A stretch of DNA of 56,168 nucleotides, taken from positions 64,001 to 120,168 of the IMG/VR virus record IMGVR_UViG_3300044699_000054, one strand, 5' to 3'. The stretch is from a virus (Duplodnaviria; Heunggongvirae; Uroviricota; Caudoviricetes). Within the stretch, counting starts at the first letter, position 1, and every line of letters starts with the position of its first letter. Shown here piece by piece: positions 12,362 through 23,041 of this stretch. Below the pieces are notes generated by a model. The model saw only the letters and a program-made list of their open reading frames with translations, had not been told where the DNA came from and ran no database searches. The position numbers and the translations under genes are program-made.

Positions 12362-12432
12362 GCATCCGTGGTGTAGGGGTTGCACGGAACCTTGCCAAGG
12401 TTCAAGAGCCAGATCGTCTCTGGTCGGATGCT
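12362..12432 (+). tRNA. trnG: tRNA-Gly(GCC), T-loop ATCGTCT
   Basis: GAACC-TTGCCAA-GGTTC. Confidence 0.8.
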
Positions 12433-12467
12433 CGTCACCTACGAGCCCATGAAAGGGGGCTGACTAA

Positions 12468-12923
12468 ATGCAAGGAGTACTGGTTCTGAATGCTGACCTT
12501 GGGCCATTGCACACGGTCAGCCTCCGTCACGCGATTCGGATGATCTGTCGTGAAGTGGCAGAGGTCCATGAAGCGGAGCCCGACATACGGTATGCCATCT
12601 TCGGTGGTATGCCCAAGATCGTGAAGCTGGTTCGGTACATCGTCACCAAGTGGCGGTACACGTCCGGACCTGCCTGGTCCCGAGTGGGAGTGCTTCGCCG
12701 GGACAATTACCTATGTGGCTACTGCGGCCGTACGGGCACCACAGTTGACCACGTGACACCGGTCTCTCGCGGTGGTAAGAACCGCTGGGAGAACACCGTC
12801 GCCTCTTGCGATGACTGTAACCAGCGCAAGGGTGACCGTGTGCCTGCGGAAGCGGGGATGCGGCTACAGATCAAGCCCTGGGCACCAACGTGGGCGACAG
12901 TAGCAGATCATCGTAGGCGGTAA
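12468..12923 (+). CDS. HNH endonuclease
   Basis: RDNYLCGYCG..TVDHVTPVSRGG..WENTVASCDDCNQRKG. Confidence 0.9.
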   Translation: MQGVLVLNADLGPLHTVSLRHAIRMICREVAEVHEAEPDIRYAIFGGMPKIVKLVRYIVTKWRYTSGPAWSRVGVLRRDNYLCGYCGRTGTTVDHVTPVSRGGKNRWENTVASCDDCNQRKGDRVPAEAGMRLQIKPWAPTWATVADHRRR

Positions 12924-12933
12924 TAGCCTGTAC

Positions 12934-12967
12934 GTGGACCAGCTCTTCCCCCGTGGAGCTGGTCCAC
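12934..12967. terminator. Hairpin between convergent genes
   Basis: GTGGACCAGCTC/GAGCTGGTCCAC 12-bp stem. Confidence 0.6.
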
Positions 12968-12984
12968 CCAGAATGGCTACCTGC

Positions 12985-13194
12985 TTAATCGTCGGATGAC
13001 GATAATGGAGGCACGCGACTGGTGTTGTTGTCTTGACGTAGCTCTTCCTTTAGCTCTTCGATCTTGGCGAGCATTACGTCTCTTTGTGAATTAACAATGG
13101 TGTGAACCTTGCGGGTCTGAATGGCTCCGTAAGCCGCGATAATAGCCACAATGCCCGTGGCTACAGCACTGATGATCTGGACCGTCTCGCTCAT
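12985..13194 (-). CDS. Small membrane/coiled-coil protein, antisense to the tRNA array
   Basis: N-terminal TM segment then heptads. Confidence 0.55.
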   Translation of the reverse strand: MSETVQIISAVATGIVAIIAAYGAIQTRKVHTIVNSQRDVMLAKIEELKEELRQDNNTSRVPPLSSSDD

Positions 13195-13238
13195 AGATCA
13201 AGTATTACTGAACAATTCCATTTAAGCTACGAAGACTT

Positions 13239-13309
13239 TCCCGATTCGTCTAACGGTAGGACACCCGGCTCTGGACCGGGCAATCTAGGTTCGAATCCTG
13301 GTTCGGGAG
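13239..13309 (+). tRNA. trnQ: tRNA-Gln(CTG)
   Basis: CCCGG-CTCTGGA-CCGGG. Confidence 0.9.
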
Positions 13310-13376
13310 CGGCGGCAGGGGGCTCGTCATTTCGCGAATGACTGAACCTGCGCGCGGGTGCGCCTCCTGTCACTGA

Positions 13377-13455
13377 GGGCCTGGAATGGTGTTCGACAAG
13401 GGTAAAGCCGCATGACGGAGGCCCTTGGACCCGAGTTCGATTCTCGGCAGGTCCA
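13377..13455 (+). ncRNA. ssrA: Mini-tmRNA: tRNA-like domain only, no mRNA-like domain
   Basis: 5' GGGCCTG-GAATGGTGTTCGAC, P2 AAGGG/CCCTT, 3' GGAC-CCGAGTTCGATTCTCGG-CAGGTCCA; G3:U70; no D-stem or anticodon. Confidence 0.8.
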
Positions 13456-13456
13456 C

Positions 13457-13530
13457 GCCGGCTTAGCTCAGTTGGTCAGAGCGGCTTCCTTGTAAGAAGA
13501 AGGTCGGGAGTTCGAATCTTCCAGTCGGCT
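13457..13530 (+). tRNA. trnT: tRNA-Thr(TGT)
   Basis: Loop CTTGTAA. Confidence 0.85.
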
Positions 13531-13534
13531 CGTT

Positions 13535-13608
13535 GCCTGAGTGATGGAACTGGCATACATACTGGACTTAAAATCCGGGTTCTGCGGGTTCGACTCCCGC
13601 CTTGGGCA
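13535..13608 (+). tRNA. trnL: tRNA-Leu(TAA), short variable loop
   Basis: CTGGA-CTTAAAA-TCCGG. Confidence 0.85.
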
Positions 13609-13617
13609 CGTAGCAAT

Positions 13618-13690
13618 GCGGTTGTAGCTCAGTGGTTAGAGCACCGGCCCGTCAAGCCGGGGGTCGCGGGTTCGAGTCCCGTCATCCGCG
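13618..13690 (+). tRNA. trnD: tRNA-Asp(GTC)
   Basis: CCGGC-CCGTCAA-GCCGG (C at position 33). Confidence 0.85.
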
Positions 13691-13691
13691 C

Positions 13692-13970
13692 GTGATACCT
13701 CCATGTTTTATATGTGAGAAGAAGGTGGAGTCAGTGTTTCCAGACCCACCTGATTACGTCTACAACCAGCCGTACAAAGCCACTGTGTTCATGTCTCACG
13801 GCCACTACGGCAGCACCGTATTTGACCCGGTCATCGGGAACCGGCACCTGGAGATAAACATCTGTGACGAGTGCCTGCTTGAGAGAAAGGATCGGGTACT
13901 GCACGTCAGACCTCATCCTCCGGCTGAGCAGGAATACGATGTTCGAGTATGGGATCCGGAGAACGACTGA
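13692..13970 (+). CDS. Hypothetical protein with CxxC motifs
   Basis: ORF; start moved downstream of the tRNA. Confidence 0.55.
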   Translation: MIPPCFICEKKVESVFPDPPDYVYNQPYKATVFMSHGHYGSTVFDPVIGNRHLEINICDECLLERKDRVLHVRPHPPAEQEYDVRVWDPEND

Positions 13971-14158
13971 TGTTGGTTCAAGTAGACCTACAGGCTGGTA
14001 ACCGATTCCTGACTTGTTGGGTAGAGCCCAAAGTCAAGGTTGGCAACGTCATCACCTTGAAGAATCATGAACAGCCAAGGCTCCAGTGGCGAGTACTTCG
14101 AGTTGGTGAACTACAGGAAGCCGCTAGGATAAATCGCGGTTGGCACAACAACATTTAG
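13970..14158 (+). CDS. Hypothetical protein
   Basis: Stop/start overlap with the previous gene. Confidence 0.55.
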   Translation: MLVQVDLQAGNRFLTCWVEPKVKVGNVITLKNHEQPRLQWRVLRVGELQEAARINRGWHNNI

Positions 14159-14246
14159 GTGGAATACCCAAGTGGTCTACGGGACCGTCCTGCTAAGACG
14201 GAGGCTGGCGAAAGTTGGCCCCTGGGTTCGAATCCCAGTTCCACCG
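14158..14246 (+). tRNA. trnS: tRNA-Ser(GCT)
   Basis: Loop CTGCTAA, long variable arm. Confidence 0.9.
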
Positions 14247-22666: not shown

Positions 22667-22692
22667 ACGGGTATCATGAACTGCATGACGGT

Positions 22693-23041
22693 ATGAAGAG
22701 AACGGATCCTGTCGGTCACCATCCACGACTGCGAGGTCCAACACTTCCGCTCCGGCGGCAAGGGTGGCCAGAACCAGAACAAGCGGGATACCGGGACCAG
22801 GGTCATCCACCACCCGTCAGGCGCCCGAGGCGAATCCCGCGAGGAACGAAGCCAGCTCCAGAACAAGCGAGCGGCCTTCCTTCGAATGATCAACAGTCCG
22901 AAGTTCCAGCTGTGGCTGGCCATCGAGACCGGGCGCCTGGCTGTGATCCAGTCTGAGCTTGATCAAGTCCACGTTCCACCTGAGGAACTGTTGATCGAGA
23001 CTCGCCACGGCGGGCGCTGGGTACCAGCACCGCATCTGTAA
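22693..23041 (+). CDS. Class-1 release-factor-like peptidyl-tRNA hydrolase (GGQ domain); missed by the ORF track because of a frameshift in the first codons
   Basis: Hand translation ..ERILSVTIHDCEVQHFRSGGKGGQNQNKRDTGTRVIHHPSGARGESREERSQLQNKRAAFLRM.. Confidence 0.85.

Follow-up and report, generated by a model that had tools for sequence, protein, structure and literature searches.

The 56,168-nt stretch of phage DNA analyzed here (the window) contains, at positions 13377-13455 of the plus strand, a 79-nt RNA gene with both halves of the tRNA-like domain (TLD) of tmRNA. We consider it fairly probable that this gene is functional and yields a tag-less mini-tmRNA reduced to the TLD, as in mycobacteriophage DS6A, and that this RNA would serve as a charged competitor preventing ssrA tagging. 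The initial annotation of the window had described a TLD-only mini-tmRNA without a tag reading frame; its coordinates and every motif that it quoted are right base for base, and the identification is borne out by the sequence, by Rfam and by a model built from other phage copies.

Layout and genomic setting of the mini-tmRNA

The two TLD halves are bridged by a 7-bp P2 helix and 19 nt, and all parts lie on the plus strand. The 5' strand of the acceptor stem, GGGCCUG (13377..13383), bears G1, G2 and G3 of the alanine identity set and pairs over 7 bp, including G3·U70, with the 3' strand CAGGUCC, which is followed by the discriminator A at 13455 (13448..13455 in all). Next to the 5' strand, the Rfam tmRNA alignment places an unpaired D-loop analogue without a D arm, GAAUGGUGUUCGA (13384..13396). 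The family consensus of the mini-tmRNAs at this site is GGUUUCGAC and that of tmRNA is ..GGa.UUCGA; in tmRNA this stretch is the SmpB-facing elbow region. The P2 helix, supported by the minimum free energy (MFE) fold and by family covariation, consists of CAAGGGU (13397..13403) and GCCCUUG (13421..13427), with element positions 21-27 paired with 45-51 as C-AAGGGU/GCCCUU-G. The 19 nt that separate AAGGG from CCCUU include a CCG/CGG hairpin. Conservation delimits an apical module at 13404..13420 (an A-rich bulge AAAG, the 3-bp hairpin CCG-CAUGA-CGG, and AG), which occupies the place of the tmRNA pseudoknots and mRNA-like domain. The GAC junction and the T arm, CCGAG-UUCGAUU-CUCGG, follow at 13428..13447, the arm having a 5-bp stem and a 7-nt UUCGAUU-type loop in both the sequence and the Rfam alignment. 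CCA is not encoded at the 3' end, where C and then G come next.

The element shares with canonical tmRNA (ssrA, RF00023) the acceptor stem with its alanine identity, the D-loop analogue, the GAC/GGAC junction, the T arm and the start of P2. It differs in having no pseudoknots, mRNA-like domain, resume codon, tag frame or stop codon and no encoded CCA, and without an mRNA-like domain it falls outside the canonical class. According to the Rfam alignment and the fold, there is no D stem or anticodon arm; the unpaired GG..UUCGAC and the GAC/GGAC junction lead into P2 instead. The MFE fold recovers all the expected parts (acceptor stem, P2, mini-hairpin and T arm), yet at a z-score of -1.9 it is just 1.9 standard deviations better than shuffled sequences. 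Thus, support for the structure comes from homology and covariation and not from folding energy.

The initial annotation had proposed checking the element with ARAGORN or with an Rfam tmRNA search. In a whole-window scan, the Rfam tmRNA model RF00023 matched 13377-13458 from its first to its last position, with 308 of its 374 positions absent and 15 nt standing in for the internal 308. The score was 47.1 bits in the whole-window scan (E 1.4e-15) and in a scan of the phage's own record, and 38.5 bits in a local E-value scan, against a gathering score of 47; with the greater part of the model deleted, the element scores at the borderline. A covariance model, R1, built from 11 other phage copies with the window left out, scored the element at 66.7 bits (E about 1e-15), with 64.3 bits for DS6A and 70.8 bits for Streptomyces phage Alone3. 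ARAGORN called nothing at 13377-13455. Among 63 mini elements, it called none a tRNA, and its tmRNA calls overlapped only two; at 324 and 626 nt, these two calls were too long to be plausible. Among the Rfam matches listed for the element in the whole-window and local scans there was no tRNA, in a listing that leaves out lower-scoring overlaps of the same clan. Weak YrlA and permuted-tmRNA matches at the site were dismissed as by-products of the T arm and the neighboring tRNA. For this window, the result is the correct annotation of a gene missed by ARAGORN and by GenBank annotators.

The window corresponds to bases 64001-120168 of an IMG/VR virus record; this record is 120,168 bp long and complete according to CheckV, and the stretch was found in soil and rhizosphere metagenomes of 17 studies. 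A deletion in the assembly had been raised at the outset as a possible source of so short a tmRNA. Three runs from three different studies each yielded one contig spanning 13000-13900 with 2-5 mismatches and no gaps; such ungapped contigs from independent studies exclude a collapsed block of ~250 nt. The only contig from an RNA library (metatranscriptome run X20) covers 13085-13276 and stops before the element. The RF00023 scan of the 120,168-bp record found no further tmRNA match and no full-length tmRNA, and the record has no gene for SmpB, Pth or a CCA-adding enzyme.

ARAGORN predicts 40 tRNA genes between 10369 and 27126 of the window, all on the plus strand. The local RNA cluster begins with tRNA-Gln(CTG) (13239..13310, plus strand; ARAGORN, and 52 bits with the Rfam tRNA model), which is followed by a 66-nt spacer (13311-13376) and the mini-tmRNA. 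A single base (C, 13456) separates the latter from tRNA-Thr(TGT) at 13457-13531, the first of three plus-strand ARAGORN tRNA genes, tRNA-Thr(TGT), tRNA-Leu(TAA) and tRNA-Asp(GTC), that occupy 13457..13691 with preceding gaps of 1, 3 and 8 nt. No terminator-like site was found in 12400-14200, and the only promoter-like site there (14040-14068) lies downstream of the element. Given this position within a terminator-free tRNA cluster, co-transcription and tRNA-type processing are the obvious inference; release by tRNA processing, which the initial annotation had suggested from the adjoining tRNA-Thr(TGT), is plausible inside such a tRNA operon. Surroundings of this kind are common and are not required: 16 of the 63 mini elements lie within 100 nt of a tRNA, and ARAGORN found no tRNA at all at 37 of the 63 loci.

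Several other features were seen near the cluster. Within the 66-nt spacer there are a 6-bp hairpin, GUCAUU-UCGCG-AAUGAC, and a palindromic stretch rich in GC, with no family match. An HNH endonuclease gene (Pfam HNH_5/HNH, E 2e-14; 12468-12920, plus strand) lies within the tRNA array, ~450 nt upstream of the RNA cluster that holds the mini-tmRNA, and may be a homing-type insertion. Between a minus-strand 69-codon open reading frame (12985-13194) and tRNA-Gln there is an AT-rich gap of 44 nt (13195-13238), likely a divergent promoter region; a sigma-70 scan found nothing in it, and the X20 contig spans it.

Relatives in phages and in bacterial genomes

The initial annotation had pointed to a similarly reduced tmRNA in mycobacteriophage DS6A, and this was correct (PMC4131195). 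The DS6A tmRNA (tmRNA Website tmID 11587 / Phage__Mycobacterium.9) has been described as 'TLD only' (PMC4131195; PMC11915505) and as "little more than the TLD" (PMC4131195). RF00023 places it at JN698994 28478-28560, between gp33 and gp34, where it is unannotated. Like the window element, it is phage-borne and about 80 nt long, and the two have in common both TLD halves, a short P2, G3·U70, A73 and an apical motif of the form GAAA(A/G)CCGCA(C/U)G(A)CGG. Their scores are likewise similar, at 43.2 bits for DS6A and 47.1 bits for the window element with RF00023 and at 64.3 and 66.7 bits with R1. They differ in that the stems have diverged by compensatory changes, the apical loop has 5 nt (CAUGA) in the window element and 4 in DS6A, and the DS6A copy stands alone between two protein genes of a 60.6-kb phage of M. 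tuberculosis, whereas the window copy sits in the 40-tRNA array of a 120-kb uncultivated soil phage. At the level of sequence, the window element has every property of a DS6A-type TLD-only tmRNA: a length of ~60-90 nt, both halves, a short capped P2, location in a phage and homology to DS6A itself.

The 'TLD only' description of DS6A reportedly goes back to Mao et al. in 2009. In the literature searched, DS6A was the sole phage named as having a TLD-only tmRNA. TLD-only phage tmRNA has thus been described since 2009/2014, and the window element is another member. Full-length tmRNAs are also carried by phages, namely Bxz1-like mycobacteriophages and cluster BE Streptomyces phages.

A megablast search of the region against cultured phages gave no match, and blastn found an unannotated copy in Streptomyces phage Alone3 (OR725492.1). 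Besides DS6A, the cultured carriers are the Streptomyces phages Alone3, LuckySocke, GiJojo, pSt2308 and BRock, and the element is annotated as RNA in none of them. Their copies are 77-78 nt long, have the same architecture and apical motif as the window element, and lie in the tRNA arrays of phages of about 112-116 kb. No cultured phage has a large terminase more than about 40% identical to that of the window, and the best matches lie outside the Streptomyces phages. Thus, the window phage is not a close relative of the Streptomyces carriers and represents a new lineage with a known type of RNA.

Two of the cultured carriers showed further features at the locus. In GiJojo, the homologue (PP725410.1 17025-17102) sits under a coding sequence labeled 'hypothetical protein' (gene 44); this protein call is probably spurious and masks an RNA gene. 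In Alone3, the copy is flanked by unannotated tRNA-like genes (L006:2854-2979 and L006:3140-3195, in OR725492.1), one of which matches the tRNA model at 37.5 bits and has 62 nt inserted in its anticodon loop, suggestive of an intron or insert; the other is a partial tRNA match at 29.2 bits.

An alignment of the window, Alone3 and DS6A showed that the apical stretch is conserved as (G/U)AAA(G/A)CCGCA(U/C)G(A)CGG. We searched IMG/VR with a strict pattern that joined the apical motif to the T loop and so forced AAARCCGCAYG and GTTCGATTC. It matched 78 contigs, including DS6A itself. In all of these except one, the 7-bp partner of the acceptor strand is present at the correct spacing, and the elements are 77-82 nt long. 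The exception (L027:946-1036, IMGVR_UViG_3300035703_001578) keeps the apical motif, T arm and 3' acceptor strand intact, but its 5' half is degenerate and it scores 35 bits; decay of a copy, or an origin as an att-type 3' fragment, may explain it. The 19 nt between the P2 strands, in which the initial annotation had seen no more than a tiny hairpin replacing the usual pseudoknot and mRNA region, are thus no arbitrary filler, given the conserved module in the window phage, Alone3, DS6A and the 78 IMG/VR contigs.

To offset the bias of the strict pattern, we ran a looser scan of IMG/VR that required GGTTTCGAC, 20-48 nt and GTTCGATTC. At least 120 stretches matched, and among the matches listed there were at least 66 further distinct mini-tmRNAs of 60-88 nt, 65 of which keep GGG, U70 and A73. 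With the strict and looser scans taken together, the matches listed include at least 120 distinct phage copies of the 60-88-nt design. Many of the looser relatives among the matches listed have P2, an A-rich bulge and then a 3-4-bp hairpin of differing sequence, and the small apical stem covaries among them (CCG/CGG, CCA/UGG, CGC/GCG and CCC/GGG). In the shortest elements (60-67 nt), P2 is simply capped by a loop. The apical module is thus a conserved trait of one large subclass, and other members of the kind do without it. The records L164 (13732-13973, IMGVR_UViG_3300010429_000303), L118 and L165 contain three tandem units of ~90 nt that share GGTTTCGAC...GTTCGATTCCGAC and have no alanine-type acceptor stem; they look like repeats of a different element, one that resembles a tRNA or bears a T arm.

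When the strict pattern was run against one bacterial genome per species (596 Gb), it gave 42 matches, only 4 of which were real mini-tmRNAs; the others were chance matches or the 3' ends of ordinary tmRNAs. The small number of real copies in bacterial genomes indicates that mini-tmRNAs are essentially phage-borne. The four genomes are those of Streptomyces lycii and Actinomadura violacea and the metagenome-assembled genomes of a Saccharibacteria and a Sideroxyarcus, and each also carries a normal full-length ssrA. None of these four ssrA genes has the apical motif, and three encode CCA. In S. lycii, ssrA and the mini-tmRNA have different acceptor stems, so the mini-tmRNA was not copied recently from the host gene. 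The A-rich bulge and hairpin, present in the window element, are missing from all four host tmRNAs, and on this small sample we rejected a derivation of the apical motif from host tmRNA.

Covariation and the alanine identity elements

Covariation was examined in 62 distinct homologues with a model-guided alignment, A6, which leans towards the structure of the model and was used because MAFFT misaligned the 5' ends. The invariance of AAARCCGCAYG and GTTCGATTC in A6 arises by construction, since the strict pattern forced both. Across the 62 homologues, 97.3% of the pair cells are paired, as opposed to 35-53% in a control in which the partners were slid by 1-3 columns, and 16 of 23 pairs show changes on both sides. 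The covariation score was 0.672 vs. 0.141 in shuffled alignments, and none of 500 shuffles reached it. Double, compensatory changes occur in all 8 pairs of P2 across the family, and 4 of the 5 pairs of the T stem covary among the 62 homologues. In the acceptor stem of the same set, pairs 4-7 covary and pairs 1-3 are fixed.

G1-C72, G2-C71, G3·U70 and A73 are unchanged in 62 of 62 homologues. The alanine identity set is thus under near-absolute selection, seen in at least about 128 distinct phage copies among the matches listed, while neighboring pairs vary freely. We argue from this invariance that charging with alanine matters. The pattern suggests that the natural mini-tmRNA would be loaded with alanine and brought to ribosomes, and would not be a mere passive sponge for SmpB. 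A GCA-UGA in the apical loop was considered as an alanine-stop tag and rejected: it occurs in only 5 of the 62 homologues, and so is not a conserved frame, and it lies inside the hairpin.

These data bear on whether the gene is functional at all. In principle, a full-length ssrA could have collapsed in the assembly, or the element could be the remains of a tRNA-Ala or an attP-type piece of a host ssrA. Phages that integrate into ssrA do carry its 3' fragments, and the IMG/VR match with the degenerate 5' half is what such a fragment or decay could leave. Against this, three independent assemblies hold the same ungapped sequence, both TLD halves are present, compensatory changes run through at least 120 distinct copies, and the bacterial genomes that bear a mini-tmRNA also hold a separate full-length ssrA with a different acceptor stem and no apical motif. 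A tRNA-Ala origin is further opposed by the tRNA searches, in which ARAGORN called 0 of the 63 homologues and Rfam listed no tRNA match over the element (lower-scoring same-clan overlaps being left out of the listing). We regard a non-functional remnant as extremely improbable.

Possible roles in trans-translation

For a functional gene, we infer the following course. The mini-tmRNA would be transcribed together with the neighboring tRNAs and released by RNase P and the tRNA 3'-end enzymes. A cut by RNase P at the 5' end of tRNA-Thr would leave a 3' end of the form ...UCCA-C, with a single 3' C. With no encoded CCA and no gene for a CCA-adding enzyme in the record, completion of this end would depend on the host enzyme. 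Host AlaRS would then charge the RNA with alanine via G1-C72, G2-C71, G3·U70 and A73, and the product would bind host SmpB and EF-Tu. Having no resume codon, tag frame or stop codon, it would compete with host tmRNA for SmpB and stalled ribosomes, and nascent (phage) proteins would receive no ssrA degradation tag; the gain for the phage is conjecture. The mini-tmRNA thus probably interferes with the host's rescue and tagging of stalled ribosomes.

Several published results bear on this scheme. According to PMC4131195, an RNA similar to that of DS6A strongly inhibits tmRNA whether or not it can be charged, perhaps by titration of SmpB, and a 2025 database paper (PMC11915505) states that the TLD-only form inhibits endogenous tmRNA in E. 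coli. SmpB titration, put forward by the initial annotation, is therefore an idea already in the literature (PMC4131195, PMC11915505), and the record encodes no SmpB of its own. TLD-only RNA accepts a nascent peptide in vitro (PMC3895274), and a truncated tmRNA has been crystallized with SmpB and EF-Tu on the ribosome (PMC8363625). Engineered TLD-only fragments show that the TLD alone binds SmpB and EF-Tu, enters the A site and accepts peptide (PMC3895274, PMC8363625), but they are artificial and lack the conserved apical module of the phage RNAs. The inhibition described in PMC4131195 is independent of alanine charging, yet G3·U70 is invariant in phages. A simple sponge misfits this combination, and the mechanism may go beyond titration.

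Natural tmRNAs cut down to little beyond the TLD also exist in organelles. The CDS-less tmRNAs of jakobid mitochondria and the ~65-bp genes of Mallomonadaceae plastids resemble the window element in this respect (PMC11915505). The organellar RNA is the only tmRNA of its organelle, works with a nucleus-encoded SmpB and presumably serves in rescue, whereas the host of a phage mini-tmRNA has its own full-length tmRNA, which makes competition the likelier outcome in the phage case.

A productive, tag-less rescue would be a different use of the same RNA. Alanyl-mini-tmRNA and SmpB would enter stalled ribosomes and take over the nascent chain, and a GGQ hydrolase would release the untagged protein, so that 'rescue only' would replace 'rescue plus destroy'; the hydrolase would be the phage's own RF-1-domain protein here and host ArfB or Pth elsewhere. 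An alanine identity set that never varies suggests that entry into the ribosome counts beyond SmpB binding, TLD-only RNA can take up a peptide in vitro (PMC3895274), and PMC11915505 regards the organellar CDS-less tmRNAs as functional. The window has, 9 kb from the mini-tmRNA and within the same tRNA-rich region, a 114-codon open frame for a stand-alone GGQ (RF-1 domain) protein (22697..23038, plus strand; PF00472, 49-50 bits). This protein is closest to the GGQ domains of RF2, RF1 and PrfH and scores under the ArfB cut-off, and the record has no Pth gene, both of which count against such a rescue. So does the reading frame (22676-23041, plus strand), which has no ATG, GTG or TTG start after the preceding stop; the nearest in-frame ATGs (22676 and 22685) are followed by a TGA at 22694-22696. 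A homologue in IMG/VR record G002 (L250:272-643) has an early ATG and an uninterrupted frame; in the window, the gene may be broken, start at a non-canonical codon or contain a site of read-through or recoding.

The hand-over of the ribosome to the phage GGQ factor had been proposed in the initial annotation. The gene is indeed present here, but the proposal does not extend to the family: of 33 other records with a mini-tmRNA, 18 of them at least 90% complete, only 1 has an RF-1/GGQ gene. We therefore rejected a partnership of the two genes as a family rule, and we regard tag-less rescue as rather unlikely. A bolder version holds that mini-tmRNAs are a distinct phage RNA lineage apart from host ssrA, alanine-charged and ribosome-entering, in which the A-rich bulge and mini-hairpin on an 8-bp P2 would form a docking or positioning module, and which in this phage would make up, with the GGQ protein, a two-part system for tag-free rescue or capture. 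This proposal is speculative, and we think it unlikely as a whole.

The RNA might instead have a role outside trans-translation. It might carry alanine for a tRNA-dependent transferase, serve as a decoy for host nucleases or defense systems that attack tRNA or tmRNA, or soak up AlaRS or EF-Tu. No function in tmRNA is known for the conserved apical module, and the element sits in a tRNA array; such arrays may counter defenses that target tRNA. However, 37 of the 63 loci have no nearby tRNA, and the SmpB-facing elements of tmRNA (GG..UUCGAC and the GAC/GGAC junction), which an alanine minihelix or a nuclease decoy would not need, are conserved. We find a function of this kind quite improbable and favor competition with host tmRNA.

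At the level of the family, the number of distinct phage sequences with this design is well above one hundred; five or more cultured Streptomyces phages also have it, and nowhere is it annotated. The near-invariance of its alanine identity elements points to a charged, ribosome-directed RNA. Cultured carriers such as DS6A, BRock and Alone3 exist. If phages routinely switch off or redirect host trans-translation by this means, such takeover of the host would be widespread and accessible to experiment.
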